DNA of 64,000 nt, taken from a phage. The notes beneath the pieces are model-generated. The model had not been told where the DNA came from. It made no database searches and saw nothing but the letters and a program-made list of their open reading frames with translations. The stretch lies in sequence record PX104378.1, one strand, 5' to 3'. Below, one piece after another: positions 5,172 through 61,725 of the stretch. A program made the position numbers and the translations under genes. Each line of letters begins with the position of its first letter. Position 1 is the first letter of the stretch.

Positions 5172-7940
5172 ATGGCAGATTTAAGCAGAATCCAATTTAA
5201 ACGCACTAGCACTAAAGGTCGTCGACCTGATGCTGGTACGATGAATCCGGGTGAGTTGGCGATCAACTTAGCCGACCAATATTTGCTTACTAAAAACGAC
5301 TCAGGTGCTATTATCAATTTAAGTTGTCCTCCGGTGTATGACCGCGATGTTACAATGGCTGGTAAAGTTAAAGGTAATAATTATATCTTAAGTAAAACCG
5401 CTAACTATCTGGAAGATCAGACAGCGCGAGATCTTAACTACTTTGGTGCTTTCCGTACCAATGGTCTTGATGGTTTTCTAGAACTAACGCTAAACGTTCC
5501 TCATTCTTCTGGTGTTCAGCATGGTCGAGGATTTACTTTCCAGTATGGTCACACTGGATCGCGAGTAGAAACCTATGGCTATAATAGAGAAGGTCAAAAA
5601 GCATTCAGCTATAAAATGTATCACGAAGGTGATAAACCAACTCCAGGAGAATTGAACGTTTATAGCAAACAAGAAGTAGATAGAATGTTTGTTAAGAACG
5701 TTAAACTTGCTACAGTTCCTGGTGATACAGTTGAAGGCTATTTTAAATTAGCAACTGCAATGATTCCACAAAATGGTCGTAGTGTATTTTTCCGTATTCA
5801 TGGTGGTAACGGATATAACGTTACTGCATACGATCAAGTTGATATTGTAGAAATTGTTATTCGCAGTGGAAATAATCGCCCTAAAGGTGTTAACGTTATT
5901 GCATATCGCCGAAATACAAACAAATCATTTGATGTTTTGGCTGTTAATACTTCTGGTGATAACTATGATATCTATGTGAAATATCAGCGTTACACTGATA
6001 ACGTTATTGTTGAATTTGGTAAAAGTGTTGATGTTAATCTGGTAGTTCATGACGTTCCAGATTTTGTTGCTGAACGTCCTGCTGGTGATAATGTTATTGG
6101 CGGTCGCGCGGTAACTCTTTTCAACACCGAAAATAAACGTGGTGTGTTGAGTTTTGACGATAACACACAAAATAGCTATGATATTGTTCACTTGAGTAAT
6201 GATAAAGGTACTGGACGAAAATATATTCGTAAATTCCGTAGCAACTATAATGAAATGATCTGGCATGAGACTGTTCAAGGTTCCAGTTATCGTCTGGCTA
6301 CTGGTAGCACTGATGCTCAGGAAATTATGACTATTGAATCTAGTAGCTCAATTGCTGGAACTCATAAAGGTAATATTATTTCTGGTCGTATGCTGTTAAA
6401 TGGCGGATCTAATGCCATTACACTACGCCGACCTGCTGGTCAATCTAATCATATTGCGTTTCAAGATAATCGTACTGGAGATATTACCCGTCAAGGATGG
6501 ATCGGTTATGCAAACGCCGATACTGACGTTTTTGAATGGTATAGTGATGTAGGTGGCAGTTCTATTCGTCAACATATCGACGGACAGATCGAATTTCAGA
6601 CAGGTAACATGAAGCGAGTTTATACCAACGGTCAATTCATTTCTTTATATGCTGATGGCTTCCGTACTGTATATGGTAACTATGGATCATGGTGGCGAAA
6701 TGACGGTAGTAACGTTTATCTGATGAGCACAAAATCAGGCGACGCTATGGGTCCGTGGAATACCTTTAGGCCGTTCATATACAGTCTCGCCAATGGAAAC
6801 GTTACTCTAGGTGGTAGCGATGCTGGCAATCATTTAATGCGTCTCAATAATGAAAATCGTCAAGTAGAAATAAATGCAACAACACATTTAGGGTCTCGAT
6901 TATATTGGGAACGTAGCGAAGGATCGGCATCTAGATTTTTTATTAAGAATTGGGGTAATGGAACTTCTCGCGCTCAAGTGTGGGAACTTGCTGACGAGAC
7001 AGGTTATCATGTATATTCTCAGCGAAACGACGCGGGTGTTCTTCAATTCCGTACTGCTGGTAATTTTGAGACTGGTGGTGATGCTCAAGTAAACGGGACT
7101 TTACGTGTCACCAATGTTCTTCGAACAGATAACCAAATTCAGATTTATCGCGATAACAACAAAGAACTCTGGTTTAAGGATGCTAATGGTACTAACCGTG
7201 GTGTTATCTGGGGTGATAGCACAGGTCAAATGCGCATTCGAAACTATAACAGCGGAGAATTTGACCATGTTTTCCAGACTGGTATGATTCGCTTAGAACG
7301 TGGGTATGCAAACGGTAGCGACCGTGGTTTGATTCGCGGAGAAGTACAAGGTGGTGCTTGGTCAGAATGGAAAACTCGCGCTGCTGGCTTATTGGTTGAC
7401 TGTCCAGCTGCTCAAACTTCCGCATATAACGTATGGAAAGCGACCAAATGGGGTTTAGACCACATCGCGGCAATGGGCGTTCATGTTCCTAGTGGTGTTA
7501 TTACTAATGCTATGGCACGTCTTCATATTCATACCACAAACTTTGACTTTAACGCATCTGGTGATTTCCAAGCTGGTCGCAATGGTAACTTTAACGATGT
7601 TTACATTCGCTCTGATGCTCGCCTGAAAATCAATAAGGAAGAGTATAAGGAGAATGCCACCGATAAAGTTAATCGCTTGACGGTATACACCTATGACAAG
7701 GTTAAATCTTTAACCGACCGTACTGTCATTGCTCATGAAGTCGGTATTATTGCTCAGGATCTTGAAAAAGAATTGCCGGAAGCAGTAACAACTTCTAAGG
7801 TCGGCGATCCTGATAAGCCAGAAGAGATCTTAACAATTTCTAACTCTGCTGTCAACGCTCTTTTAATTAAGGCGTTTCAGGAAATGAGCGAAGAATTGAA
7901 AGTCGTTAAAGCTGAACTAGCGGAACTTAAAAAGAATTAA
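5172..7940 (+). CDS. 37: Distal long tail fibre gp37 with C-terminal intramolecular chaperone (S74-type) domain
   Basis: N-terminus MADLSRIQFKR..GELAINL matches T4 gp37; C-terminal ~110 aa carry the SDxxxK autoproteolysis motif (YIRSDARLKINKEEY) typical of endosialidase/T5 pb1 chaperone domains. Confidence 0.8.
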   Translation: MADLSRIQFKRTSTKGRRPDAGTMNPGELAINLADQYLLTKNDSGAIINLSCPPVYDRDVTMAGKVKGNNYILSKTANYLEDQTARDLNYFGAFRTNGLDGFLELTLNVPHSSGVQHGRGFTFQYGHTGSRVETYGYNREGQKAFSYKMYHEGDKPTPGELNVYSKQEVDRMFVKNVKLATVPGDTVEGYFKLATAMIPQNGRSVFFRIHGGNGYNVTAYDQVDIVEIVIRSGNNRPKGVNVIAYRRNTNKSFDVLAVNTSGDNYDIYVKYQRYTDNVIVEFGKSVDVNLVVHDVPDFVAERPAGDNVIGGRAVTLFNTENKRGVLSFDDNTQNSYDIVHLSNDKGTGRKYIRKFRSNYNEMIWHETVQGSSYRLATGSTDAQEIMTIESSSSIAGTHKGNIISGRMLLNGGSNAITLRRPAGQSNHIAFQDNRTGDITRQGWIGYANADTDVFEWYSDVGGSSIRQHIDGQIEFQTGNMKRVYTNGQFISLYADGFRTVYGNYGSWWRNDGSNVYLMSTKSGDAMGPWNTFRPFIYSLANGNVTLGGSDAGNHLMRLNNENRQVEINATTHLGSRLYWERSEGSASRFFIKNWGNGTSRAQVWELADETGYHVYSQRNDAGVLQFRTAGNFETGGDAQVNGTLRVTNVLRTDNQIQIYRDNNKELWFKDANGTNRGVIWGDSTGQMRIRNYNSGEFDHVFQTGMIRLERGYANGSDRGLIRGEVQGGAWSEWKTRAAGLLVDCPAAQTSAYNVWKATKWGLDHIAAMGVHVPSGVITNAMARLHIHTTNFDFNASGDFQAGRNGNFNDVYIRSDARLKINKEEYKENATDKVNRLTVYTYDKVKSLTDRTVIAHEVGIIAQDLEKELPEAVTTSKVGDPDKPEEILTISNSAVNALLIKAFQEMSEELKVVKAELAELKKN

Positions 7941-7982: not shown

Positions 7983-8222
7983 ATGGTCTATAATATCGTC
8001 ATTGGTGCTTTGTCTAATTTCGGAATGAAACTATTGTCAAAGTTAATTAGTGAAAAGATGCTCACTAAAATTTTCTTCTACTGCGCTCGTCGTCTTGCGG
8101 CTTATACCAATACGCCAATTGATGATCGTTTCGTGGAAGAACTTTATAAGGAGTTTAATAAAGATCAGTCAGAAGATAGTAACGAGCAAGATAAACCTAG
8201 TGATAGTCAAGTACCTAAATAA
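7983..8222 (+). CDS. Hypothetical 79-aa protein between 37 and t
   Basis: Strong RBS AAGGAGAAACGGCT-ATG; hydrophobic N-terminus, acidic C-terminus; no recognisable homolog. Confidence 0.45.
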   Translation: MVYNIVIGALSNFGMKLLSKLISEKMLTKIFFYCARRLAAYTNTPIDDRFVEELYKEFNKDQSEDSNEQDKPSDSQVPK

Positions 8223-8255: not shown

Positions 8256-8912
8256 ATGCAAGTTTCTGAAAAAGAGAAAGACTTTGCTATCTCAAATGTC
8301 CTGCGCGCTATTTTCACAACTAAAAGCACGGAGTTGCTCGTACTTCGTGTTTTTGCTGCCGTCGTGTTGTCCATATTAGCATTTGTCGTTTATAGTAAAA
8401 ACGAGTTATTTGCGCTTTATAAAGAGACTCGTTATGAGACTTATGCTCACGTTCTCCAGGTAGAGAAAGACCGCAATTTTGATAATGCAGCACAGGAGCA
8501 GTTACAGATAGTTCATGTGTCGGCTGATGCCGATTTTTCTGCTGTTTTTAGTTTTCGTCCGAAAAACCTAAACTATTTTGTTGATTTGGTGGCATATGAA
8601 GGAAAGCTACCGCATACAATTGACGAAAAGAATTTAGGCGGATTCCCTATCAATAAAACGAGTGAAGAATATCGTAGGCATCTTTTAGGTAAATCCTATT
8701 TTACTGATAAAGATTTCCAGTATATTCCATCGAGGGAGAAAAAATTAGAGAATATCGATATAGGGTTTATGTATTCTTGTCCTATATTCAATCTCGATAA
8801 TGTCTATTCTGGTAGTATCGCCATTGCATGGAGGAATAAACCAGATATTGACATTGAGAATTTAGATACTCTTTGCAATCAATCTGCCAGAATCCTCGGA
8901 AGGATCAGATAA
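8256..8912 (+). CDS. t: Holin t
   Basis: 218 aa, identical length to T4 holin; conserved blocks LEQLQIVHVSADADFSAVFSFRPKNLNYFVDLVAYEGKLP and MYSCPIFNLDNVYSGSIAIAWRN; C-terminal RILGRIR. Confidence 0.9.
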   Translation: MQVSEKEKDFAISNVLRAIFTTKSTELLVLRVFAAVVLSILAFVVYSKNELFALYKETRYETYAHVLQVEKDRNFDNAAQEQLQIVHVSADADFSAVFSFRPKNLNYFVDLVAYEGKLPHTIDEKNLGGFPINKTSEEYRRHLLGKSYFTDKDFQYIPSREKKLENIDIGFMYSCPIFNLDNVYSGSIAIAWRNKPDIDIENLDTLCNQSARILGRIR

Positions 8913-8918
8913 CTTAAA

Positions 8919-8949
8919 GGGGAAGCCTTTCGGCCTCCCCTTCTTTTTT
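8919..8949 (+). terminator. Terminator at the convergence of t and the minus-strand block
   Basis: GGGGAAGCC-tttc-GGCCTCCCC followed by TTCTTTTTT. Confidence 0.65.
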
Positions 8950-9196
8950 ATTGGCGCATAGAAGCCCCTGAATCACATTTTGACGCTGTATGATGAAAAC
9001 ATGTAGCGTACCAGTCATCGGCTTGCTTGTCTTCGTCAGAGAACGCGTAATTTCGTTGTATACCGTTTTCTACTTTGACCAGTGCAATAGCTGTTTCTGG
9101 AAGATCAATCAATCGGACAAAATCACCATCTTCCCATTCTACACGAGCAATATCATAACCCATCTCAAAATAAACAATCGCTTGCTCTAATCTCAT
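8948..9196 (-). CDS. Hypothetical protein
   Basis: 82-aa ORF, first of the minus-strand block convergent with t; ATG start. Confidence 0.45.
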   Translation of the reverse strand: MRLEQAIVYFEMGYDIARVEWEDGDFVRLIDLPETAIALVKVENGIQRNYAFSDEDKQADDWYATCFHHTASKCDSGASMRQ

Positions 9197-9504
9197 TCTG
9201 GAAACTTCCCGTAAATGTTCTCTGCCAACATACGCGCATCGCTAATGATATCTTTCATGCTATGACCGTAGTGTTCAGCCATTGAGTTGACACAATCAAC
9301 AAAGAAATTATAACGGCGACGGTTTAAGATTTCTTCTCTGCTATAGTTTTCATATTTGACGGTCGAGTGTGCTTTCTCGATTGCCTTTATCGCTATATTG
9401 ACTTCATTGATAATGGTTTTAGCATTGTATGCACCACGACGGATCAGGATATTTGTCAATTCTCTTGCAATATCTTGCAATTCTTCATATTCATGTTCAA
9501 ACAT
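9193..9504 (-). CDS. Hypothetical protein
   Basis: ORF-track 9193..9525 trimmed to the ATG preceded by GAGAGG RBS (MFEHEYEEL...). Confidence 0.45.
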   Translation of the reverse strand: MFEHEYEELQDIARELTNILIRRGAYNAKTIINEVNIAIKAIEKAHSTVKYENYSREEILNRRRYNFFVDCVNSMAEHYGHSMKDIISDARMLAENIYGKFPE

Positions 9505-9529
9505 AATCAACCTCTCAAAATACAATCCC

Positions 9530-9862
9530 TTACAGATGAAAACCTGTTACGATCACCGCATCGATCGTACCGCTAGGAATAAACGGTTCGCCCTCTTTTA
9601 TTTCAACTTTGAATTGATGCCATTTCGCTAATACTTCTTCCGGTACACCCAGCGATTCGGCGTCTGCTTTAGTTTCATCCATAATCCAACTAGGCTGCAT
9701 GAGAGCATAGTTTACATAGTCCATTTCTGGTGTCATGTCATCAATGTTAATATATTTGCAGTTGACGCGTTTCAGAATTTCAAATTCTTTATTGTCAACC
9801 TGTACCATGTATAATTCAGTAGTTTCTGGAATCAGTTCCCACACAATCAGTACATTTTTCAT
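9530..9862 (-). CDS. Hypothetical protein
   Basis: 110-aa ORF; ATG start preceded by GAGGTGA. Confidence 0.5.
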   Translation of the reverse strand: MKNVLIVWELIPETTELYMVQVDNKEFEILKRVNCKYINIDDMTPEMDYVNYALMQPSWIMDETKADAESLGVPEEVLAKWHQFKVEIKEGEPFIPSGTIDAVIVTGFHL

Positions 9863-9870
9863 AGTTCACC

Positions 9871-10239
9871 TCACTTAACAAAGATTTTCTTTAATGCTTT
9901 CAGGATCGTTGCTTCCGGCGCTTCTTCCGGTGGAGGAAGCAATTCTACCACTTCCTCTTCCAACTCGATATAGTCTACCAGATATTCTACATAGAATGCA
10001 AGTGCTTCCATGAAATTAGATGCTACATCCGATTCACCACAAGCTCCTACATGCATTGTATAAACATCACTGCGATCAAGTTTGTGGATGCTTCCCAGAT
10101 AGTTTCGGTTATACCAGACTTCCCACACTTTCAGCTTTCCGGTTTTGGTTGCTGTTTTATAATCGGTTTCGTAATGATGCAATTGACGTTGCAAATCATT
10201 GATAATAACACATTTTTCGTAATTGCTTTGAATTTCCAT
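9871..10239 (-). CDS. Hypothetical protein
   Basis: 122-aa ORF, acidic C-terminus; RBS GAGGATTA. Confidence 0.5.
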   Translation of the reverse strand: MEIQSNYEKCVIINDLQRQLHHYETDYKTATKTGKLKVWEVWYNRNYLGSIHKLDRSDVYTMHVGACGESDVASNFMEALAFYVEYLVDYIELEEEVVELLPPPEEAPEATILKALKKIFVK

Positions 10240-10249
10240 GATGTAATCC

Positions 10250-10441
10250 TCACTTATCGTTAAGAAGTTCTAAAACTTTCTGTCGTACTTTGTCAATATT
10301 AGTTGATTCAAAAACTGTACGGTATCCCCAGCGTTGACCGTATGAGCGCGAGCAATCCCCATATCCCCATTGTTCAACCTGATAGTATTCAAGGAATGGG
10401 TGTTGCCGAACTATGATACCATCACGGTTAAAAATTACCAT
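10250..10441 (-). CDS. Hypothetical protein
   Basis: 63-aa ORF; GAGGATTATATT-ATG initiation cassette immediately downstream of a TTGTTGACA box. Confidence 0.45.
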   Translation of the reverse strand: MVIFNRDGIIVRQHPFLEYYQVEQWGYGDCSRSYGQRWGYRTVFESTNIDKVRQKVLELLNDK

Positions 10442-10464
10442 AATATAATCCTCATGTCAACAAC

Positions 10465-10764
10465 TTATTTTCGGTTGTGGTCACGATATGTTTTAAAATA
10501 TCCCTCGTACCACGGTAAAACATCTGGATTTTTACCACTATACAGACCTTTAACCATCATGTCAATAAGACCGTCCGGTGTTTGATAATTACCAGCTTTT
10601 ATAAGCTCTCTGATTAAAATTTCCTTGTATATGTCTTTCGGATCTTCGTAATCAACTTGTATTGTGGTTGTTGTCCCGCTTAATTTGGTTTCTGGAGTAT
10701 CTTGCATCGCCTTCCACCAATCTTTTGTAATCTTCATGCTGTTGAATTTCATAATTATCTGCAC
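10465..10764 (-). CDS. Hypothetical protein
   Basis: 99-aa ORF; start uncertain. Confidence 0.4.
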   Translation of the reverse strand: MQIIMKFNSMKITKDWWKAMQDTPETKLSGTTTTIQVDYEDPKDIYKEILIRELIKAGNYQTPDGLIDMMVKGLYSGKNPDVLPWYEGYFKTYRDHNRK

Positions 10765-11522
10765 CCGTACTGGTCAACATAGGTTTTAGAGTGTCCTTGT
10801 TCGCGGACTTCTAAGCGAATGATATCGCTATCCTGTTCACGCCACACATAATACTTTTTATTTTCTTTCCAGCCGCTAAAAACGATCATTCCGTTGTCAT
10901 CAACTACTCGTTTTGTGTTTGCCTTATGAACATCATTATTGTCGATGTATGTAAAATGGATAATCTGACCATCTTTTACTTTCAGAGTCAATTCACCTGG
11001 ATTGTATTCTTTATAAAAAGGCTGTTCTTTCGGCTTAGTGTTTGCTCCGTCGATATTTTTCCATTTAAAGTGAGATTCACATTGCAAGGTAAACTCGCTG
11101 GTTTGTGGTTTCTTTTCTTTCTTCGGTTGCTCTACCACTTTTTCTTCCTGTTTCGGTTGTTCTTCTTCAACCTTCGCAGAAGTCTCTGAATCGCTTTCTG
11201 ACGCTGTTTCTTCTTTAGGTAATACATTCATCAAGTTTTGGATTTGAGCGTTATATACAGCCTCCAGTGGCTGAATCTGCCCGATATTGATCATTGTATC
11301 ACGAACGGTTTTATTCCAGTTGCGTTGCTCTTGTTTCAGAGACGGATCAATCTTAACAGCCTTAACATATACTTCATGGAGTTTAGAATCCAGTGCGGAG
11401 ATTGACTCATTAGCACAAATAAACTTCTCTGATTTGGTAGTGGCTTTAGCGCAATCGAAGGACGCAGCATTAGCACCGAATGCAGTAGCAGAAAGAACGA
11501 TAGCAGCGATAATGTTTTTCAT
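10755..11522 (-). CDS. Secreted protein with DUF1311 (LprI-like lysozyme-inhibitor) N-terminal domain
   Basis: Signal peptide MKNIIAAIVLSATAFGANA; motif C..A..T..E..IC...LD..L..Y...QRNW...RD typical of DUF1311; K/E-rich linker; GAGGAATATATT-ATG; promoter cassette upstream. Confidence 0.6.
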   Translation of the reverse strand: MKNIIAAIVLSATAFGANAASFDCAKATTKSEKFICANESISALDSKLHEVYVKAVKIDPSLKQEQRNWNKTVRDTMINIGQIQPLEAVYNAQIQNLMNVLPKEETASESDSETSAKVEEEQPKQEEKVVEQPKKEKKPQTSEFTLQCESHFKWKNIDGANTKPKEQPFYKEYNPGELTLKVKDGQIIHFTYIDNNDVHKANTKRVVDDNGMIVFSGWKENKKYYVWREQDSDIIRLEVREQGHSKTYVDQYGCR

Positions 11523-11556
11523 AATATATTCCTCAGTGTTTTGTCTTGATGTGAGT

Positions 11557-11585
11557 ATCTTACTACTCCCTTAATCCGGTGTCAA
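11557..11585 (-). promoter_or_regulatory. Early promoter cassette with spacer stem-loop (PeSL-like)
   Basis: Minus-strand TTGACA-17nt-TAAGAT; GGGAGTA..TACTCCC inverted repeat; upstream of ORF 10755..11522. Confidence 0.5.
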
Positions 11586-11592
11586 CTACTTT

Positions 11593-11748
11593 TTAAATTT
11601 CTTCTACAGTAAAGTCTTCAATGTTGTTGTGCTCGGCGAACGTTGCCAGACCAGCATTCCATGCATCATCCTCAGAGAAGAATACACCGTAACGTTCATA
11701 TCCCTTAGCGCCTTCAAATTTAACCAGTAATTTGTGAGTATGTTTCAT
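11593..11748 (-). CDS. Hypothetical small protein
   Basis: Track ORF 11593..11811 trimmed to the ATG preceded by AGGAGAATCAAA RBS; promoter cassette at ~11780-11808. Confidence 0.5.
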   Translation of the reverse strand: MKHTHKLLVKFEGAKGYERYGVFFSEDDAWNAGLATFAEHNNIEDFTVEEI

Positions 11749-11779
11749 TTTGATTCTCCTTCGTTGTCTTGATGAGTTC

Positions 11780-11808
11780 ATTGTAGGGGATCGCCGATCC
11801 CCTGTCAA
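11780..11808 (-). promoter_or_regulatory. Early promoter cassette with spacer stem-loop (PeSL-like)
   Basis: TTGACA-GGGGATCGGCGATCCCC-TACAAT; the 17-nt spacer is a near-perfect palindrome. Confidence 0.55.
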
Positions 11809-11818
11809 CAACTATTTT

Positions 11819-12031
11819 TTAATTTTTACCCGCTCGTGCATTAATACGCATTTTCTGAATAGCCATGATCTGGCTTACTGCTTCTTCTTTACGTTCTTGC
11901 GTGATAACGTGACCAGATTCCGCAAACTCTCCCGCAACTTCTTCTACGATCTCGCGAACTTGAGAACATCCAAAGATGCGGTTTCCTTCGTAGCTCATAA
12001 ATTCAGTCACTACTTGCTCAATAGATTTCAT
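11819..12031 (-). CDS. Hypothetical protein
   Basis: 70-aa ORF; RBS AGGAGAATCACATG; promoter cassette upstream. Confidence 0.5.
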   Translation of the reverse strand: MKSIEQVVTEFMSYEGNRIFGCSQVREIVEEVAGEFAESGHVITQERKEEAVSQIMAIQKMRINARAGKN

Positions 12032-12064
12032 GTGATTCTCCTTCTTTCGTTTCGGTATGGGAGT

Positions 12065-12093
12065 ATATTACTACTCCCGTTTCTTTACGTCAA
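12065..12093 (-). promoter_or_regulatory. Early promoter cassette with stem-loop (PeSL-like)
   Basis: TTGACG-17nt-TAATAT; GGGAGTA/TACTCCC inverted repeat flanking the -10. Confidence 0.5.
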
Positions 12094-12100
12094 CTGGTTT

Positions 12101-12343
12101 TTAGAAATTTTTCGCTTCTTCTTCGGTCATCATAACCGCGCATTCGTGCATAACTTTGAAAACCGGATCAATCATGTCAAATGCTTCACGGGACAGTTTA
12201 CGAGAAGCGATTTTGATTGCTTCTACGTCTTCTACTACAGGAACAAAAACAGTTTTCAGTTCGTCGAGGACGGCAGCTTCTTTTTCATTCAGGAAGATCC
12301 CAGCGTCGTACAGTGCAACTTCGATAACATTAACTTTAACCAT
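12101..12343 (-). CDS. Hypothetical protein
   Basis: Track ORF trimmed to the ATG preceded by GGAGGAAATAAAA; 80 aa. Confidence 0.5.
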   Translation of the reverse strand: MVKVNVIEVALYDAGIFLNEKEAAVLDELKTVFVPVVEDVEAIKIASRKLSREAFDMIDPVFKVMHECAVMMTEEEAKNF

Positions 12344-12377
12344 TTTTATTTCCTCCAGTTCGTTTCGGTATGGGAGT

Positions 12378-12406
12378 ATAATACTACCGATGACCTTTGG
12401 CGTCAA
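12378..12406 (-). promoter_or_regulatory. Early promoter cassette (PeSL-like)
   Basis: TTGACG-17nt-TATTAT; imperfect inverted repeat TCGGTA..TACCGA. Confidence 0.45.
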
Positions 12407-12608
12407 CTGCTTTTTTATTATTTTCGTGAAAATTTTTCGTCGCCTCATGTGCTTTTCGCTGGGCTTCTTGTTGTGCTTGCTGGCGTGCTGCCTCTTGCGA
12501 TGCCATAACGGAAGCATTTGCGGCAGTTACAGCCGCTACCATCGCTGCGGTATTGGCATTTACAGTACATGCGCTCGCCAACAAAGCAATTGCAATCATT
12601 TTCTTCAT
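12384..12608 (-). CDS. Small secreted protein / putative lipoprotein
   Basis: Signal peptide MKKMIAIALLASAC (lipobox-like ASAC), then Ala/Gln-rich helical region. Confidence 0.5.
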   Translation of the reverse strand: MKKMIAIALLASACTVNANTAAMVAAVTAANASVMASQEAARQQAQQEAQRKAHEATKNFHENNKKAVDAKGHR

Positions 12609-12775
12609 AATTTCCCCTTTAGGTTATCTTCGACCTTCATCCATTCCGCATATTCTTGCGCGGCTACTTTCGGAATTAGGCCGTCTTCGTACATTGCCTC
12701 AAGTAATTCTTCGTCGGTGGGCTTATACCCCAGATAAGCCGCAACCTGATTTTTCCAAATCTTATACCAGTTCAT
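12605..12775 (-). CDS. Hypothetical small protein
   Basis: Track ORF 12605..12844 trimmed to the ATG (MNWYKIW) preceded by GGTGA. Confidence 0.4.
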   Translation of the reverse strand: MNWYKIWKNQVAAYLGYKPTDEELLEAMYEDGLIPKVAAQEYAEWMKVEDNLKGKL

Positions 12776-12779
12776 ATTA

Positions 12780-13052
12780 TCACCAATCAAGAGCGCGTGT
12801 CTCTGCGTCTTCCCATGCTTGATCCATAACAGCCTTGAAAACATATTCTAAGGTATCATCTTTCGAGAATCCGAAGATCTTAGACGGAATATCTTCAATT
12901 GCTACTCCAGCAACTTCCGCATTACGTGCCTGGCAATAATGCAACTCTAAGTTATCGAGATAACGACCGCCTAATTTCTCCATATCGTCCCAGCATTTCC
13001 AGTAACCTACTTTATCGGCAATTGCTAACACTTTGCTGTTTTTGTTGCTCAT
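12780..13052 (-). CDS. Hypothetical protein
   Basis: Track ORF trimmed to the ATG preceded by AAGGAGAATCAAAG; conserved 5'UTR cassette upstream. Confidence 0.5.
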   Translation of the reverse strand: MSNKNSKVLAIADKVGYWKCWDDMEKLGGRYLDNLELHYCQARNAEVAGVAIEDIPSKIFGFSKDDTLEYVFKAVMDQAWEDAETRALDW

Positions 13053-13081
13053 CTTTGATTCTCCTTTTGTTTGGTATGTGT

Positions 13082-13112
13082 GTATTATGCAATGTTTGAT
13101 TATGGAAGTCAA
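13082..13112 (-). promoter_or_regulatory. Early promoter with conserved 5'UTR cassette
   Basis: TTGACT-~19nt-TAATAC followed by ACACACATACCAA..AGGAGAATCAAAG-ATG. Confidence 0.4.
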
Positions 13113-13120
13113 CAACTTTT

Positions 13121-13152
13121 CAAATAAAAAAGCCGACCACAAGGATCGGCTT
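13121..13152 (-). terminator. Rho-independent terminator after ORF 13162..13554
   Basis: Minus-strand AAGCCGATCC-ttgtgg-TCGGCTT followed by TTTTTATTT. Confidence 0.65.
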
Positions 13153-13161
13153 AATAATCAG

Positions 13162-13554
13162 TTACTTACTAAATTTCTTTTTGGCTTCGTCTACTGCATG
13201 AGATGCCAGTACCGCCGCCGCATGTGCGCTTTTATCTGTGTTACAGAGAACACCCAAATAAACATCACGCCAAAGTTTAATCATCTCATAGATCATATCA
13301 ATATCATTTTCTTGTTTGTTGGCGATGCTACTTGTCGTTATCTGGTAAGGCAACGGTTTAATCTGTACTGGATCTGCCATTGGGCTAATCGGTTTCGGTT
13401 CGGTCATAATAGGTGCTGTTGGTGATGTTTTCCATACGCTATCATGCCACGGTTTAATCGTTGTATCGTACAGTTTGTAAGGATTTTTATCTGGATTAAC
13501 CATCCATGCATGATGATTACCCAAACCATTTGAAGTGATGCGTCGTTCAGTCAT
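13162..13554 (-). CDS. Hypothetical protein
   Basis: 130-aa ORF downstream of gene 52; followed by hairpin terminator. Confidence 0.5.
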   Translation of the reverse strand: MTERRITSNGLGNHHAWMVNPDKNPYKLYDTTIKPWHDSVWKTSPTAPIMTEPKPISPMADPVQIKPLPYQITTSSIANKQENDIDMIYEMIKLWRDVYLGVLCNTDKSAHAAAVLASHAVDEAKKKFSK

Positions 13555-13557
13555 AAT

Positions 13558-13761
13558 TTATTTCCTCTCTGAAAACTCTTTCATCAAGTTGTCGATCTTT
13601 GCTCTGTGATCTGGCGTGTTTGTCATCTCTGCTAATTTGCTCAGAGATTCACTGGTGATCCGGTTGGATTCTTCCAGTGTTTCAACGACCATTGGCACAA
13701 TCTTTTTATTTTTGTACACAAATGCAATATAACCGCCTTCTGGATATTCTTTCATAATCAA
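13558..13761 (-). CDS. Hypothetical protein
   Basis: 67-aa ORF, ATGA-type coupling to gene 52 stop. Confidence 0.45.
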   Translation of the reverse strand: MIMKEYPEGGYIAFVYKNKKIVPMVVETLEESNRITSESLSKLAEMTNTPDHRAKIDNLMKEFSERK

Positions 13762-15104
13762 CCCTTCTTAAGTTCTTTAAGATCTTTCTTATATTCTTTC
13801 ATTGCGGTCGTCTTTGTCCAATACTCATATTCACTATGATGTTTATCGGCATCTTTGACCAGTCGATCATACTCTTCTTGAGTAACGCTATACAATGGCA
13901 TAGAAACGAGCTTATCGGCGTATGGACGCAGTTTTTCATGTCCATTGATGGATTGCATTACCTCGGCCTTTTTCTTGCCCTGTATCGCGATTTCGCCCTT
14001 AATTACGCGGTCGATAAATTCGGCTTTAGCCATTGCATAATTGTATGCTTCCAGTGTTTCCGCTTGCATCAATTCAATGCGTTTATCAACATACCCTAAG
14101 CGGATTTCGACGAATCGGCGAATCAGGTCGCTAGCTTTCTCGAATACTTCTACTAAACCACGTTCGTTAACTACTACGATATTCTGGGCTACTAACTGCG
14201 TTAGTTTAAAATCCTTCATGATTTGCTCATGTCGAGCGGATTCATCTTCGCTTTTGAAATAATCACGTTTCAGTGTTACCTCAAATCTGAATCCGTCCTT
14301 AGAGCAACGGTCATTATACGATACAATCAGATCTTTTTCTTCCAGTGCATCCAGTACCGCTACATATTCTTCACGGTCGAACTTATAAGGAACTTCTGAT
14401 ATTGTCAGTTTAGTCTTGCCGTTTAGTTCATATGTACCCTCAAGAATCACACCATCGCGATCATCTCGCGGGATAACTTTACCCGTGAATTTCGGGAATT
14501 GAACACTAGGTTCTTTATCCAGTTTTCCGGCAAGTGCTAGCTCTGTGCATTCAATAAGGCTTTCCAGTGAATGCGGTAAAATGTCAGTTTTATACCCTGT
14601 AGCAATACCACTAATACCATTAGCCAATACCATTGGCACAACTGGCAAGTAGAACGCTGGCGGGATGTGTTCCAGATCTTCGTGCTTAGGTGCGCAATTC
14701 ATATCTTTATAGATTTTAAAGAAGTTTTCATGCACACGAGCAAAGATATAACGTGCCGCACCTGCTTTCTGGACTAAACGCGATCCGAAGTTACCTTGAC
14801 CGTCAAGCAGTGGAGTATTATTGCTCCATGTATTTGCCATGAGTGATCCGGCTTCTACGGCATTAGTTTCCCCGTGGTGATACCCCAACTCAGCGACACC
14901 AGATCCAATATCTGCCATCTTACGGAATTTCTTACGGTCGCCTTTACTCTTTTGCAAAGCACATTCCATAACAAAGCGTTGCACTGGTTTAAGACCATCC
15001 ACTAATTGAGGAATCCCGCGTTCCTCGGCAGAATAGATCGCATATTCCTTAGCTTCATTATGTACAATGCTTTCAAGGCTACGGTAAGTAACTGATTTAT
15101 TCAT
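13758..15104 (-). CDS. 52: DNA topoisomerase II medium subunit gp52 (GyrA-like)
   Basis: Strong match to T4 gp52 (PVQRFV, GYHHGE, LDGQGNFGS, IPPAFYLP, TISEVPYK); start set to the ATG after GAGGTGA (MNKSVTY...), 448 aa vs T4 442 aa. Confidence 0.9.
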   Translation of the reverse strand: MNKSVTYRSLESIVHNEAKEYAIYSAEERGIPQLVDGLKPVQRFVMECALQKSKGDRKKFRKMADIGSGVAELGYHHGETNAVEAGSLMANTWSNNTPLLDGQGNFGSRLVQKAGAARYIFARVHENFFKIYKDMNCAPKHEDLEHIPPAFYLPVVPMVLANGISGIATGYKTDILPHSLESLIECTELALAGKLDKEPSVQFPKFTGKVIPRDDRDGVILEGTYELNGKTKLTISEVPYKFDREEYVAVLDALEEKDLIVSYNDRCSKDGFRFEVTLKRDYFKSEDESARHEQIMKDFKLTQLVAQNIVVVNERGLVEVFEKASDLIRRFVEIRLGYVDKRIELMQAETLEAYNYAMAKAEFIDRVIKGEIAIQGKKKAEVMQSINGHEKLRPYADKLVSMPLYSVTQEEYDRLVKDADKHHSEYEYWTKTTAMKEYKKDLKELKKG

Positions 15105-15111
15105 CTTCACC

Positions 15112-15474
15112 TCATACACGCTTACAAATCACATTCTTTACTTTATCAGATTTATCAGCCCAATCCAATAGCCATTTTAACGGAAGGATTGAAACAATAA
15201 ACGGGGCAGCAATCAAAGCAAACATGATACACCTGATAATCAGGAAAACGCAAGTGACAAAACTAGCGATAGTGATCCCGACAAAACAAAATACCATAGA
15301 AAACAGAGTAATGATATAGAAAGGCCAGAATACCCACTCCCGCATCTTAACGCCTTTGTATTCTCTGAATTGCTTAAAATCTACAAACAACTCTCGGATA
15401 GACGCGTACAGGACTGAAAAATCATCTTTCATTGCTCTGAATGAGCAATCTTCTATTTTAGAATGACCTAGCAT
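15112..15474 (-). CDS. Hypothetical membrane protein
   Basis: 120 aa with two or three hydrophobic helices (WVFWPFYIITLFSMVFCFVGITIASFVTCVFLII...). Confidence 0.5.
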   Translation of the reverse strand: MLGHSKIEDCSFRAMKDDFSVLYASIRELFVDFKQFREYKGVKMREWVFWPFYIITLFSMVFCFVGITIASFVTCVFLIIRCIMFALIAAPFIVSILPLKWLLDWADKSDKVKNVICKRV

Positions 15475-42635: not shown

Positions 42636-42661
42636 AACAACCTCCAATCAATTTTTAGAGA

Positions 42662-42689
42662 GTATAACGGGGATTTCTCCCCGCGTCAA
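42662..42689 (-). promoter_or_regulatory. Early promoter cassette with spacer stem-loop (PeSL-like)
   Basis: TTGACG-c-GGGGAGAAATCCCC-g-TTATAC; just downstream of the gene 47 stop. Confidence 0.5.
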
Positions 42690-43724
42690 CTAACTTTTTG
42701 CGCTATTTACTTCGGCTAAAAGTTCATCAGAAATACGCTTGACCGCCGCAAGTTCATCCGGTTCTAGGTTTTGTTCTTCCAGATATTCGTAAACCATTTG
42801 AATAGTGCTTTTAACCTCAATAACACCAGTTTCCTGTGATGCGCTACTCTCCAGCTTATGGACCACTTTTAGCTTGTGTACAACGGCCTCTAACGCGCTT
42901 TCTAACTTAGTTAACCCATTATCAGCGACCGTTGCGATAAGACGCACACTAAGCCCCTTATAGCGTTCTACATCGATTTTATCATCTGACGGGTAAGTGA
43001 TACGCACATGATAAGTTTTGTCATTCTGGATAAACTCTTTTTTGTGTGTATCGGTATCGAATACCCAAAAACCACGCGGATCGTTTTCGTCACCAGCCGT
43101 TAGTGTGTATGGTGTACCGATATACGTTACGTTACCGCCATCGCTGATAGTATGAAAGTGACCAGAAAACACTTCACGATATTTCTTGAGGAAGTCCGCG
43201 CTATAACCTTCGGATTTTAGCCCTTTATAGAAATAGTAACCAGACAATTCCCAATGGCCTACACAATATTCGCTGAATGAGTTTTGAATAAACTCTAAAA
43301 TCTCTGATTTATTGTCATCACAAAACCACGGGAACAGATCAAATGATACACCATCAAAGGTGACTGTTTCCGGTTTATCAATAACCTTAATGCAATCATA
43401 CTGGCTTAACACTTCACGCGGTGCGTTAGGCTGGATCTTGTTTCGTTTAAACATATCATGATTCCCGACCGTGGTATAACAAGTAATACCAGCCTCTTCC
43501 AGTAGCGGGATAATTTTCGTTCTATTAAAACGCATAGTTGCATGTGTGATTGCTTTTCGGCAATCAAACCAGTCCCCTGTCTGAATCCATGCCTTAATAT
43601 TATGTTTTTTTGAATAATCGACTGCCTTTTTAATAGTATCAAGAATATACTCATGTATCCACGGATCATCGTTGCCGATACCAGTATGCAGATCACCTAA
43701 AAGCAAAATTTTCATATTATACAT
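42690..43724 (-). CDS. 47: Recombination nuclease subunit gp47 (Mre11/SbcD-like)
   Basis: Phosphoesterase motifs (LLLGDLHTG, GDWFD, GNHD, GHFH) and long blocks matching T4 gp47. Confidence 0.9.
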   Translation of the reverse strand: MYNMKILLLGDLHTGIGNDDPWIHEYILDTIKKAVDYSKKHNIKAWIQTGDWFDCRKAITHATMRFNRTKIIPLLEEAGITCYTTVGNHDMFKRNKIQPNAPREVLSQYDCIKVIDKPETVTFDGVSFDLFPWFCDDNKSEILEFIQNSFSEYCVGHWELSGYYFYKGLKSEGYSADFLKKYREVFSGHFHTISDGGNVTYIGTPYTLTAGDENDPRGFWVFDTDTHKKEFIQNDKTYHVRITYPSDDKIDVERYKGLSVRLIATVADNGLTKLESALEAVVHKLKVVHKLESSASQETGVIEVKSTIQMVYEYLEEQNLEPDELAAVKRISDELLAEVNSAKS

Positions 43725-60403: not shown

Positions 60404-60432
60404 AGTATAGGGGATACGTGATCCCCTGTCAA
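60404..60432 (-). promoter_or_regulatory. Early promoter cassette with spacer stem-loop (PeSL-like)
   Basis: TTGACA-GGGGATCACGTATCCCC-TATACT; conserved 5'UTR to AGGAGAATCAAA-ATG. Confidence 0.55.
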
Positions 60433-60440
60433 CAACTTTT

Positions 60441-61011: not shown

Positions 61012-61265
61012 AGCTTCCTCAACCAGTTATTAAAGCGAGCAAACCATGATGCTTTTCGTGCTTCTTTTACTTTATGTGCACGAAAACCACTGAAACACCA
61101 TTCATAATCATCACCGAAACATGATTCAACAGGAACACCCGCATTTCGTAGTTCTCTGGTCTTTATCATGAATCCTTGACATAAGGGGCGACCTTCAACA
61201 ATGATAGGAAGTTTAACTTTTTCCATGAAAGTATACCCAGCACGGTCAATAATTTCAATCTTCAT
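61008..61265 (-). CDS. Paralog-family protein (KIEIID...FM..VKLPIIVEG)
   Basis: 85 aa; N-terminus shared with 61284..61481 and 63607..63828. Confidence 0.5.
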   Translation of the reverse strand: MKIEIIDRAGYTFMEKVKLPIIVEGRPLCQGFMIKTRELRNAGVPVESCFGDDYEWCFSGFRAHKVKEARKASWFARFNNWLRKL

Positions 61266-61283
61266 AATATAATCCTCAATTAG

Positions 61284-61481
61284 TTATACTGCCCATGCTT
61301 CATTTGCACGAAAACACCATTCATACTCAGGAAAATAACCTTTAATTGGTACGCCAGCTTTTTGTAGTTCCTGCGTTTCTACAAGATAATCAAGCCCATA
61401 TCGACGACCTTCCACAATAATAGGAAGTTTAACGCCATTCATGAAAGAAAATCCACCATCATCAATAATTTCAATTTTCAT
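61284..61481 (-). CDS. Paralog-family protein (KIEIID...FM..VKLPIIVEG)
   Basis: 65 aa; MKIEIIDDGGFSFMNGVKLPIIVEGR. Confidence 0.5.
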   Translation of the reverse strand: MKIEIIDDGGFSFMNGVKLPIIVEGRRYGLDYLVETQELQKAGVPIKGYFPEYEWCFRANEAWAV

Positions 61482-61725
61482 TTACATTATCTCCATAGAT
61501 CTTTCCATCAATATCAATTTCACCAGCGCGAACATCTAGGATAAGATGTGGTAGGTGAATGCAGTTTTCCCAACCTACTCGCTTCATTTCTGCTACAGTA
61601 ACGTAAGCCCATCCGTTCGCTGTAATAAAGTCTACTTCAACCTTGAGAGGAAAGCAAGACTTTTCTATGTCTTCGAATCCGACAATGTGTTTTGTTGTTG
61701 AATATGGAATATATCCGGTGATCAT
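61471..61725 (-). CDS. Hypothetical protein
   Basis: 84-aa ORF. Confidence 0.45.
   Translation of the reverse strand: MITGYIPYSTTKHIVGFEDIEKSCFPLKVEVDFITANGWAYVTVAEMKRVGWENCIHLPHLILDVRAGEIDIDGKIYGDNVNEN

Follow-up and report, generated by a model that had tools for sequence, protein, structure and literature searches.

The interval between the holin gene t and gene 52 (positions 8948–13761 of the 64,000-nucleotide stretch of phage DNA analysed, referred to here as the window) is the known variable accessory-gene block of RB49-type coliphages, located where T4 carries asiA and motA. It is highly probable that the block as a whole represents a hyperplastic region of the RB49 (Krischvirus) type, with 15 genes, promoter/stem-loop cassettes (PeSLs), no MotA or AsiA, and the mechanisms proposed below for o1 and o7. 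An accessory block at this site is ordinary for the RB49-type lineage, and the absence of motA and middle promoters in this type is already published rather than new. Two genes go beyond the published RB49 work: o1, a Tad2-like candidate, and o7, a hypervariable-barrel protein that E. coli prophages share.

Fifteen small genes between t and gene 52

The flanking genes are holin t (8256–8912, plus strand; Pfam Phage_holin_T, E 1.7e-61) and the topoisomerase gene 52 (13758–15119, minus strand; Pfam DNA_topoisoIV, E 1.1e-68). A megablast search with the window returned 63 phage records with 90–99% identity. Every fetched relative with a resolved lineage is a Krischvirus (the lineage field of the ELT4 record reads just 'Viruses'), and the t and 52 flanks are common to them. 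The window evidently derives from a Krischvirus of the RB49/GEC-3S type, with ~95% identity to ~60 sequenced phages. The preliminary description had counted about 14 small genes at 8948–13761; the coordinates are exact, and we count 15 ORFs of 51–255 aa, named o1–o15, every one on the minus strand. Their start codons were corrected from PHROG alignments and the annotation of relatives.

Trained on the long ORFs of the window, a gene caller based on codon usage picks all 15 ORFs with positive scores and rejects longer ORFs on the opposite strand. A Shine-Dalgarno motif is present at 13 of the 15 (o6 and o12 have no obvious site), and PHROG families are matched by 13 of the 15. The pN/pS value, pooled against eight relatives, is 0.03–0.30 in 12 ORFs, which indicates purifying selection on these 12, and 0.68 in o15; o7 and o14, which have no usable gapless relatives, were left out. 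The codon-usage scores, the rejected opposite-strand ORFs and the low pN/pS values, together with tight packing with hardly any gaps and the same ORF boundaries across nine genomes, argue against a reading in which many ORFs are spurious and the interval is mostly non-coding spacer or decaying pseudogenes. Such a reading is hardly credible, even though no function is assigned to 13 ORFs, several ORFs measure just 51–65 aa, o15 has a pN/pS of 0.68, and o6 and o12 have no obvious Shine-Dalgarno site. By these measures, all 15 small ORFs on the early-gene strand are real accessory genes. The 13 genes besides o1 and o7 remain ORFans with no assignable function. Anti-defence or superinfection-exclusion roles, which had been suggested for the block, gain indirect support for o1 and o7 and are still a guess for the other 13.

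Starting from gene 52, o15 (13558–13755; 65 aa; phrog_15105) begins 3 nt past the gene 52 stop codon and is 74–92% identical among relatives, and o14 (13162–13554; 130 aa; phrog_15644, E 3e-85) is found in 9/9 loci with 90–93% aa identity. These are followed by o13 (12780–13052; 90 aa; phrog_7287; pN/pS 0.04), o12 (12605–12775; 56 aa; phrog_8655; pN/pS 0.10) and the Ala/Gln-rich o11 (12384–12608; 74 aa; pN/pS 0.08), which has no PHROG or Pfam match. With its predicted N-terminal signal peptide (N-terminus MKKMIAIALLASACTVNA|N), o11 is a predicted small exported protein; it is present in 7/9 loci, the window counted, and missing in pEJ01 and phiS. The single-gene cassette of o10 (12101–12343; 80 aa; pN/pS 0.03), also missing in pEJ01, starts with the ATG at 12343, downstream of the promoter P_o10 and a GGAG Shine-Dalgarno. 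o9 (11819–12031; 70 aa; phrog_14966; pN/pS 0.21) occurs in 9/9 loci, and o8 (11593–11748; 51 aa; phrog_19699), a single-gene cassette with promoter cassettes on both flanks, in 5/9.

Beyond o7, o6 (10465–10752; 95 aa; phrog_15915) exists as two alleles, with 45% identity in GEC-3S and SSG23 and 89–96% in the other relatives, and o5 (10250–10441; 63 aa; phrog_6957; pN/pS 0.13) has a Shine-Dalgarno motif. In tblastn searches, o4 (9871–10239; 122 aa with an acidic C-terminus; phrog_1594; pN/pS 0.09) matches 59 records, exclusively Krischvirus, with at least 95% identity. The same search with o3 (9530–9862; 110 aa; phrog_4658; pN/pS 0.06) matches 250 phage records, 191 of these below 60% identity, including RB43 and T4-like phages of Klebsiella, Enterobacter, Cronobacter and Citrobacter; o3 is evidently conserved outside the genus Krischvirus too. 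o2 (9193–9504; 103 aa, helix-rich by composition; phrog_9457) is an allelic hot-spot, which is 99–100% identical in Skers and pEJ01 and just 52–74% identical in the other relatives, where an extra 41-aa ORF and a 110-aa paralogue are found.

Promoter cassettes and the exchange of genes

The observation that several ORFs have their own promoter cassette is confirmed by five aligned cassettes, upstream of o13, o10, o9, o8 and o7, with the layout AAAA..GTTGAC-N17-TAnnAT-..-SD-ATG. The motif GTTGAC-N17-19-TANNNT is seen 25 times in the window versus 2.15 expected (12-fold), 24 of the 25 on the minus strand. All five promoters lie on the minus strand. P_o13 (13084–13112; TTGACT-17-CATAAT) has an annotated promoter at the equivalent position in GEC-3S, and P_o10 (12378–12406; TTGACG-17-TATTAT), located inside the o11 3′ end, is 97% identical to P_o9 (12065–12093; TTGACG-17-TAATAT) across a 29-nt stretch (repeat family D1). 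The stem-loop of P_o9 covers the −10 element (−11.9 kcal/mol, z −3.8), as does the weak one of P_o7 (11557–11585; TTGACA-17-TAAGAT; fold z −1.6). P_o8 (11780–11808; TTGACA-17-TACAAT) carries a GGGGATC..GATCCCC stem-loop within the spacer (−12.8 kcal/mol, z −3.4), which fits the commonest PeSL class, where the stem-loop sits between the −35 and −10 elements (PMC2839356). Three of the five cassette stem-loops have z ≤ −3.4 and two are weak (z −1.1 and −1.6). Hyperplastic regions with such cassettes were described in RB49 and phi1 by Arbiol et al. (2010; PMC2839356), and the promoter and terminator activity of PeSLs was demonstrated experimentally in these phages; judged by their sequence, our five cassettes are the published PeSL elements.

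A minus-strand intrinsic terminator (13130–13152), predicted from a nine-pair stem followed by a T-run (−12.7 kcal/mol, z −3.9) and annotated as a terminator in GEC-3S, lies directly upstream of P_o13 and evidently ends the gene 52-o15-o14 transcript. Between the convergent t and o1, the stem-loop at 8916–8943 (−23.2 kcal/mol with z −4.5 when folded as the minus strand, −16.8 kcal/mol with z −2.6 as the plus strand) is a predicted bidirectional intrinsic terminator, which GEC-3S annotates on both strands.

The 15 genes would be organized into approximately six transcription units. o15 and o14 would be transcribed by read-through from gene 52 up to the terminator, the terminator-promoter cassette next to it would drive o13-o12-o11, three single-gene cassettes would serve o10, o9 and o8, and the last cassette would drive the seven-gene run from o7 to o1, which would end at the bidirectional terminator that also serves the convergent holin gene. 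In each cassette, a sigma-70 promoter close to consensus follows an AT-rich tract, with a stem-loop that lies between its hexamers or over them, and precedes a Shine-Dalgarno site and the ATG; host sigma-70 RNA polymerase would fire the cassettes immediately upon infection. The conserved ~70-nt cassette sequence may also provide recombination sites, at which related phages acquire, lose or exchange individual ORFs; T4's asiA-arn-motA slot is filled with other cargo in Krischvirus.

The hyperplasticity of the region is apparent from nine Krischvirus loci, in which alleles of o2, o6 and the C-domain of o7 have been replaced, with sharp identity steps there, and in which o8, o10, o11 and three extra ORFs are present in some loci and absent from others. 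Each presence/absence event (o8, o10, o11, x86/x106 and x68) adjoins a promoter cassette. This adjacency, the near-identity of P_o9 and P_o10, and the experimental support for the PeSL mechanism in RB49 and phi1 (PMC2839356) speak against an 'accessory island' of anti-defence and exclusion genes shaped by diversifying selection, in which whole blocks are taken up from unrelated mobile elements through illegitimate recombination and PeSL-mediated homologous shuffling among T4-like phages is not the main process. That process, which we consider unlikely, is favored by the breakpoints of the o2, o6 and o7-domain swaps, which lie in or between genes with no cassette adjacent, and by the 5′ 380–420 nt of o7, which are 93–96% identical to an E. 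coli prophage gene and point to exchange with temperate elements. Illegitimate acquisition and PeSL shuffling are not mutually exclusive.

AsiA, MotA and middle-mode control

No AsiA or MotA had been recognised in the interval, and a lineage without MotA/AsiA middle-mode control had been proposed; both statements stand. Pfam scans of the 15 ORFs at E ≤ 0.1 give no AsiA or MotA, and phmmer with AsiA and MotA yields no significant match among them. o2, the best positional candidate, is ruled out as AsiA by an hhalign probability of 1.3% against the AsiA alignment. A whole-genome profile search for asiA and motA, which the preliminary description had set as the refutation test, found no homologue in a composite genome made of the window and the remainder of GEC-3S (~200 ORFs Pfam-scanned altogether): at E ≤ 0.05, the 183 further ORFs (55–270 aa) match none of AsiA, MotA_activ and MotCF. 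Neither asiA nor motA appears in the GEC-3S annotation, and the 3 Mot-box promoters seen are what chance predicts (3.1 expected). The negative searches and unenriched Mot-boxes indicate that the initial interpretation is right. Nolan et al. (2006; PMC1524935) reported that RB49 has no motA ortholog and no middle-promoter consensus, with Desplats 2002 cited in the relevant passage, and listed AsiA orthologs solely for phages other than RB49. Taken with this literature, the searches and Mot-box counts support a Krischvirus lineage that probably lacks the MotA/AsiA middle-mode apparatus.

It is very unlikely that one small ORF encodes an AsiA or MotA that is analogous or has diverged strongly, with a middle-mode-like sigma appropriation unrecognisable by sequence. 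Helix-rich o2 does lie almost at the T4 asiA position, shares a 10-residue (F/Y)SRE(D/E)I motif with AsiA and is a nominal phmmer match of T4 AsiA at E 8 (one of four non-significant matches, E 4.1–8), and Aeh1 and KVP40, which have AsiA without a known MotA, indicate that partial systems exist (PMC1524935). However, a match at E 8 in a set of 3520 ORFs amounts to noise, the hhalign, Pfam and Mot-box results are all negative, and two earlier studies likewise did not find motA, according to the relevant passage of PMC1524935. Moreover, o2 is replaceable (alleles just 52% identical, with an existing paralogue), which is unlike a core regulator.

o1, o7 and the block compared with known systems

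o1 (8948–9196; 82 aa; pN/pS 0.04), present in 59/59 Krischvirus records, is a candidate Thoeris-signal sponge, a minimal protein resembling Tad2 (SPO1 gp34.65; DUF2829), the anti-Thoeris gcADPR sponge. It exceeds the gathering cutoff of the Pfam Tad2-like family PF11195 (27.1 bits versus 25; E 6.4e-6), and its AF2 model (pLDDT 72.7) has SPO1 Tad2 with gcADPR (8smf_H; E 7.6e-3, prob 1.0, TM 0.56/0.60) as the sole notable Foldseek match in the PDB, the next having E 0.87. The predicted order of α1, β1–4, a short helix and β5 is the published Tad2 topology. In the best local alignments, W21, S53 and D56, which are invariant across the o1 family, stand opposite the SPO1 Tad2 ligand residues W25 (the first pocket Trp), S76 and D79 (the helix Ser and Asp). 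Unlike Tad2, o1 has a core of ~67 aa rather than 89 aa, a nearly missing β2-β5 insertion and three substitutions (N26, the phosphate-binding Asn, to E22; W73 to Y50; T78 to E55), which make gcADPR binding doubtful. Sequence and profile searches with o1 matched no PDB chain; the pairwise comparison with SPO1 Tad2 (z 1.4–2.3) is not significant alone, and hhalign gives E 0.03 over 24 residues. The family is tiny, limited to Krischvirus and few relatives, and very shallow (~five true relatives among 1.84 billion representatives).

The odds are slightly short of even that o1 has the DUF2829 fold but is no immune-signal sponge and binds another ligand or a protein partner. The three altered positions contact gcADPR in the published structure, o1 has almost no β2-β5 insertion, a Klebsiella phage relative stops directly past the last Trp, binding to something else was once proposed for the DUF2829 protein AcrIIA7, and the Tad2 literature predicts some homologues without gcADPR binding. 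The same literature reports that 4/5 tested Tad2 homologues from distant phyla inhibit Thoeris, which, with the invariant W21, S53 and D56 and the strong purifying selection, favors a sponge: o1 most likely oligomerises and would sequester a gcADPR-type nucleotide immune signal in an altered pocket.

o7 (10755–11522; 255 aa) has a signal peptide and an LprI/DUF1311 domain, which an acidic linker joins to a disulfide β-barrel (nt 10758–11102) that is hypervariable between alleles. It looks like a secreted LprI-domain protein, as predicted from sequence, with a swappable binding domain; after periplasmic export, the constant LprI domain would bear the hypervariable, disulfide-closed barrel. The barrel most likely binds a variable periplasmic target, e.g. 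a host peptidoglycan hydrolase or one from a superinfecting phage, which by analogy would give Spackle-like exclusion. T4 Spackle (gp61.3), a small helical protein of the periplasm, confers superinfection exclusion by inhibiting the gp5 tail lysozyme. The likeness lies just in the proposed principle, an early secreted phage protein blocking a periplasmic peptidoglycan hydrolase; it is an analogy and not membership, with no sequence or fold kinship claimed.

M. tuberculosis LprI combines an LprI domain with an MliC domain, whereas o7 is not a lipoprotein and has no MliC match in Pfam. No SxSGAxY-type motif, an MliC/PliC signature, was seen in the o7 barrel, which sets it apart from the MliC/PliC/PhiA/ACP inhibitors of peptidoglycan hydrolases. 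Barrels of a generic kind, namely Cap15, outer-membrane proteins, designed barrels and lipocalins, reach scores as good as those of the inhibitors. The long acidic linker distinguishes o7 from both M. tuberculosis LprI and MliC-type inhibitors, and the hypervariability of its barrel is, to our knowledge, no known property of MliC/PliC. In Salmonella ScwA, the LprI domain by itself conferred no lysozyme resistance.

The T4 interval between t and 52 indeed contains asiA, arn and motA, as had been stated (order t-asiA-asiA.1-arn-arn.1-4-motA-motA.1-52 in NC_000866). The two intervals have identical flanking genes and orientation and a run of small early genes; among those of T4 are arn, an anti-defence gene directed against McrBC, and motA.1, which is predicted to encode a periplasmic peptide. 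However, they have zero genes in common, and the T4 block carries both middle-mode transcription factors that are missing from the Krischvirus lineage. In contrast, the PeSL regions of RB49, phi1 and JSE (PMC2839356; Comeau et al. 2014, PMC4122927) share the genus, the locus and ~95% DNA identity with our phage; their small early-strand ORFans often come with an upstream AT-rich tract, sigma-70 promoter, stem-loop and Shine-Dalgarno site, and close relatives differ by ORF insertion, deletion or replacement beside cassettes. There is no difference in kind from these regions; this phage has its own allele combination, in which o2 is of the Skers/pEJ01 type, the 41-aa ORF and the paralogue are both missing, and the o7 barrel belongs to a rare class.

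Gene content and plasticity of the interval between t and gene 52

The interval at 8948-13761 contains 15 small minus-strand ORFs (o1-o15; 51-255 aa), in which o1 adjoins the holin gene t and o15 adjoins the topoisomerase gene 52; the coordinates of the preliminary description are exact, and its figure of about 14 ORFs rises to 15. The minus-strand gene run has gene 52 (13758-15119, minus strand; Pfam DNA_topoisoIV, E 1.1e-68) at its upstream end and converges on three plus-strand genes, which are the long-tail-fibre gene 37 (5172-7940), a 79-aa ORF (7983-8222) and t (8256-8912; Pfam Phage_holin_T, E 1.7e-61). The sign of the GC skew flips at ~8900, as expected where the coding strand switches. 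A megablast search with the interval returned 63 phage records at 90-99% identity. The fetched records with a resolved lineage all belong to Krischvirus, the RB49, phi1, JSE and GEC-3S group of 'pseudo-T-even' coliphages, and have the t and gene 52 flanks in common. At the same position, T4 shows the order t-asiA-asiA.1-arn-arn.1-4-motA-motA.1-52, so the comparison with T4 from which the preliminary description started is correct.

Three lines of evidence establish o1-o15 as genes. After correction of the start codons by PHROG alignments and the annotation of relatives, all 15 ORFs are selected by a caller that scores codon usage and was trained on long ORFs of the window itself; it rejects longer opposite-strand ORFs, e.g., 11750-12508 (plus strand), which are favoured by a length-based caller. 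A Shine-Dalgarno motif is located 5-12 nt before the ATG in 13 of the 15 ORFs. The pooled pN/pS against eight relatives is 0.03-0.30 in 12 ORFs and 0.68 in o15, with o7 and o14 excluded because they gave no usable gapless matches. Neither a tRNA (ARAGORN) nor an Rfam family (E≤0.1) was detected in the interval.

To map plasticity, the interval was compared in nine Krischvirus loci. o1, o3, o4, o5, o9 and o12-o15 are present in all nine. o2 shares 99-100% identity with its counterparts in Skers and pEJ01 and 52-74% with those in the other loci, and the RB49-type o2 allele is followed by an extra 41-aa ORF and a 110-aa o2 paralogue. GEC-3S and SSG23 carry an o6 of 45% identity, and all eight relatives have a C-terminal half of o7 that differs from that of the window. 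Three ORFs of the window (o8, o10 and o11) and three that the window lacks (x86/x106 and x68, of 86/106 aa and 68 aa) are variably present, and each gain or loss adjoins a promoter cassette, whereas the allele swaps at o2, o6 and o7 have no bounding cassettes. The label 'hyperplastic' is justified because the nine loci show both allele replacement, at three places, and presence or absence of whole ORFs. The 110-aa paralogue (RB49-type genomes; stretch L007, 1446-2216) is ~35% identical to the o2 of the window (9193-9504, minus strand). Together, o2 and this paralogue suggest a tandem duplication in RB49-type genomes, which would be absent in the window, Skers and pEJ01. An additional ORF, situated between o9 and the next cassette, encodes 86 aa in Skers (L006, 4075-4335) and 106 aa in kaaroe (L011, 4296-4616); within the kaaroe copy, a stretch is duplicated (KAYPHMVL..KVYPHMVL) and carries a repeat_region annotation.

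Promoter cassettes and the missing middle mode

The promoter cassettes noted previously are borne out as five near-consensus sigma-70 promoters on the minus strand, located upstream of o13, o10, o9, o8 and o7 with the -35 element starting at 13112 (P_o13), 12406 (P_o10), 12093 (P_o9), 11808 (P_o8) and 11585 (P_o7). All five can be aligned to a common order of AAAA, GTTGAC, a 17-nt spacer, TAnnAT, ~25 nt, a Shine-Dalgarno motif and the ATG; the hexamers are TTGAC(A/G/T)-17-TAnnAT or CATAAT, and AAAA precedes each of them. P_o8 holds a GGGGATC/GATCCCC stem-loop within the spacer, P_o9 a stem-loop over the -10 element, and a terminator hairpin (13152-13130, minus strand) precedes P_o13. The fold z-scores of these three are -3.4 to -3.9; P_o10 (z -1.1) and P_o7 (z -1.6) have weak stems only. 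A GGGG..CCCC spacer stem-loop like that of P_o8 occurs at at least two further sites (42661-42690 and 60404-60433). The motif GTTGAC-N17-19-TANNNT has 25 occurrences in the window (2.15 expected), of which 24 are on the minus strand, and its density is ~1 per kb within the interval (five cassettes in 4.8 kb), compared with ~0.3 per kb elsewhere in the window. Of the T4 late-promoter motif TATAAATA, the window contains a single copy, which lies outside the interval, and therefore no overlap of early and late promoters is visible there.

This anatomy is that of the PeSL (promoter-early stem-loop) element of Arbiol et al.: near-consensus hexamers with an AT-rich tract before them, a stem-loop that lies between, over or just ahead of the hexamers, repetition upstream of ORFans, and indels bounded by cassettes are all found. 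RB49 and phi1 carry ~50 PeSLs per genome, mostly in hyperplastic regions; the promoter and terminator activity measured by lacZ fusions is that of other PeSLs of phi1/RB49, not of the cassettes described here (Arbiol et al., 2010, PMC2839356). A strong hairpin at 8916-8943, predicted by folding and annotated in GEC-3S as a bidirectional terminator, serves both o1 and t. With these elements, the interval would be transcribed as a unit running from gene 52 through o15 and o14 to a terminator, a unit o13-o12-o11, three putative single-gene units (o10, o9 and o8), and a unit from o7 to o1 that would end at the bidirectional terminator. P_o10 (12378-12406, minus strand) overlaps the last codons of o11 (12384-12608). 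Some records (SSG23) have a 138-aa ORF annotated across o10 and P_o10 instead, which is probably a wrong start.

That the interval holds neither AsiA nor MotA withstood searches at several levels. None of the 15 ORFs matches the Pfam families AsiA (PF09010), MotA_activ (PF09114; activation domain) or MotCF (PF09158; DNA-binding domain) at E≤0.1. The whole-genome check for motA and asiA covered a further 183 ORFs (55-270 aa) of the window and of the part of GEC-3S that does not overlap it, packed as polyproteins for Pfam; neither gene was matched at E≤0.05, while RegA, RpbA, gp59, DsbA, Acb1 and other T4 families were recovered. phmmer searches with T4 AsiA, MotA and 11 T4 neighbours against 3520 six-frame ORFs (window plus ~160 kb of GEC-3S) yielded nothing significant; the best E was 4.1 for AsiA and 0.096 for MotA, the latter on the signal peptide of o11. 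Neither of the two is named in the annotation of GEC-3S. o2 was considered as a divergent AsiA for its helix-rich composition and its location near the position of asiA, and was rejected since the o2 family, compared with an AsiA alignment by hhalign, reached a probability of 1.3%. The search for AsiA homologues added little beyond Pfam because only close relatives of at least 59% identity were returned. Mot-box promoters (TGCTTnA-N11-13-TAnnnT) are not in excess, with three in 64 kb versus 3.11 expected. Pfam, phmmer, hhalign, annotation and the Mot-box count thus all speak for a lineage without MotA/AsiA middle-mode control, as had been proposed. This absence is textbook knowledge for the RB49-type lineage and already published: neither a motA ortholog nor a middle-promoter consensus was found in RB49, and AsiA orthologs are given only for RB69, 44RR, Aeh1 and KVP40 (Nolan et al., 2006, PMC1524935, who cite Desplats, 2002, for the same absence in RB49).

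The earlier observation is accurate and was correctly interpreted, but neither goes beyond what has been published on RB49-type phages; among regions of this known kind, the locus is ordinary. Publications of 2002-2010 already cover the missing MotA-dependent middle mode and the cassette-driven plasticity of ORFans, and the window shares ~95% identity with dozens of Krischvirus genomes already sequenced. The practical value lies in an annotated parts list for a locus that is called 'hypothetical protein' in every database record. Since phages of this genus serve in therapy cocktails, and phi1 was isolated for this use, it is of some applied interest which accessory genes vary among isolates. 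Two modest leads are new: o1 can be assigned as Tad2-like, and o7 is built as a mosaic that is shared with prophages.

A Tad2-like protein and the remaining ORFs

o1 (82 aa) matches the Pfam family Tad2-like/DUF2829 (PF11195) at 27.1 bits versus a gathering threshold of 25 (E 6.4e-6), and the match spans positions 1-71 of the 73-position profile; P0001, a close o1 homologue, matches PF11195 too. The AF2 model of o1 (pLDDT 72.7) consists of a helix (residues 3-11), four strands, a second helix (residues 54-58) and a final strand (residues 63-68), which is the order of elements in the published Tad2 topology. Sequence and profile searches of the PDB with o1 gave no match, and the top PDB match of the model in Foldseek is 8smf_H, SPO1 Tad2 with 1''-3' gcADPR (E 7.6e-3, prob 1.0, TM 0.56/0.60), followed by a runner-up at E 0.87. 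Pairwise local alignments of the two halves of o1 with SPO1 Tad2 (gp34.65, extracted from the SPO1 genome) are not significant alone and served only to set the register, in which the pocket residues W21/W25, S53/S76 and D56/D79 (o1/SPO1) appear kept, N26, W73 and T78 of SPO1 appear changed to E22, Y50 and E55 in o1, and W62 of o1 lies opposite W85 of SPO1 Tad2. We conclude that o1 has the fold of and belongs to the Tad2/DUF2829 family, with a pocket that appears only half conserved.

The gene is found in 59 of 59 Krischvirus records and is under strong constraint, with a pN/pS of 0.04. Homologues are few: a word-indexed search returned 2 matches and an exhaustive search 8 among 1.84 billion representatives, of which ~5 are true relatives. 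P0003, P0007 and P0008 were rejected as relatives because they are long FN3-like/repeat proteins whose E-values, down to 2e-14, arise from summed weak repeats. Outside Krischvirus, the phage collection contains a single relative of o1, a 68-aa ORF of Klebsiella phage VLCpiP4b (L013, 1453-1659), an N4-like phage, in which it lies between two tail-protein genes and stops right after the last conserved Trp.

An ORF of GEC-3S annotated as 'RNA ligase' (61090-61554; L004, 11090-11554) matches Pfam Acb1, the anti-CBASS phosphodiesterase, at E 5e-50, and therefore the lineage has a known anti-CBASS gene, outside the window. Given this pocket, o1 may sequester another signal or may be no sponge. If o1 is a sponge, it would suggest counter-defence against TIR/Thoeris-type signalling, beside the Acb1 homologue against CBASS. 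Further ORFs of the composite genome formed by the window and the rest of GEC-3S (L005, GEC-3S ~116-124 kb, and L004) match GmrSD_N (E 9e-19), Macro (2e-5), CYTH (7e-6) and TnsA-like endonuclease N-terminal (3.5e-20) domains, and some of them could likewise have accessory or anti-defence roles.

Within the interval, o3 (9530-9862, minus strand) also occurs in 191 non-Krischvirus T4-like phages at 34-42% identity, including RB43 and phages of Klebsiella, Enterobacter, Cronobacter and Citrobacter. This conservation across other genera, unlike that of its neighbours, hints at a more general function. o4 is found in Krischvirus only, and o11 is predicted to be a small exported Ala/Gln-rich protein. 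The remaining ORFs have no match in Pfam, the functional categories of PHROG, NCBIfam, PADLOC (ten ORFs searched in each of the latter two) or the PDB sequences, and PDB sequence searches with o2, o3, o4, o7 and o14 returned noise only (E>0.3).

o7, an exported protein with a variable C-terminal domain

o7 (255 aa; 10755-11522, minus strand) consists of a predicted SPase-I type signal peptide, an LprI/DUF1311 domain (residues 24-76; PF07007, 26 bits versus a gathering threshold of 22), an acidic linker, and a C-terminal domain that is flanked by two conserved Cys. C24 and C36 are invariant, and the E. coli homologues are named 'LprI family' by NCBI. Across 21 cluster representatives, residues 1 to ~125 hardly vary, in contrast to the ~105 C-terminal residues, which sort into at least five highly dissimilar classes. 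The class of the window is found in only one of 57 phage records (UPWr_E1), and the other records are 30-37% identical in this part. In 26 of 5426 complete E. coli chromosomes, a gene matches the first 380-420 nt of o7 at 93-96% identity; in strain H2, this gene is located at a prophage end, beside hicAB. The signal peptide, LprI domain and linker of the mosaic are thus almost unchanged, also in the DNA, between the virulent phage and a gene at the end of an E. coli prophage (L016, 9001-9771). A constant carrier, a variable putative barrel and exchange with prophages give o7 the look of an arms-race gene.

Lysozyme inhibitors of the MliC/PliC type were considered for the putative barrel. As a sequence member of this family (PF09864), o7 was rejected, with no Pfam MliC match at E≤0.1. 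A motif of the SxSGAxY type, which is conserved in the inhibitor loops of MliC/PliC, was not seen when the sequence of this part was inspected by eye. Foldseek against the PDB gave weak lipocalin/FABP matches only, and unrelated barrels score alike. Tentatively, and with more doubt than confidence, we suggest that o7 could be a periplasmic binder of a variable target, likeliest a peptidoglycan hydrolase, with a role in excluding other phages. A wider scheme is rather improbable. In that scheme, o7 would represent an unrecognised 'moron' family of virulent T4-like phages and E. coli prophages, in which a constant exported LprI carrier presents rapidly swapped lipocalin/PliC-like barrels against different periplasmic targets (e.g., the tail lysozyme or transglycosylase of a competitor) and confers allele-specific superinfection exclusion; o1, as a minimal Tad2 whose pocket has Glu in place of Asn and Tyr in place of Trp, would sequester a Thoeris or other signal other than 1''-3' gcADPR. 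The known system that o7 resembles is LprI of M. tuberculosis, which has the same domain plan: it combines an LprI and an MliC domain, and the inhibition is carried by the MliC part (PMC7933661).
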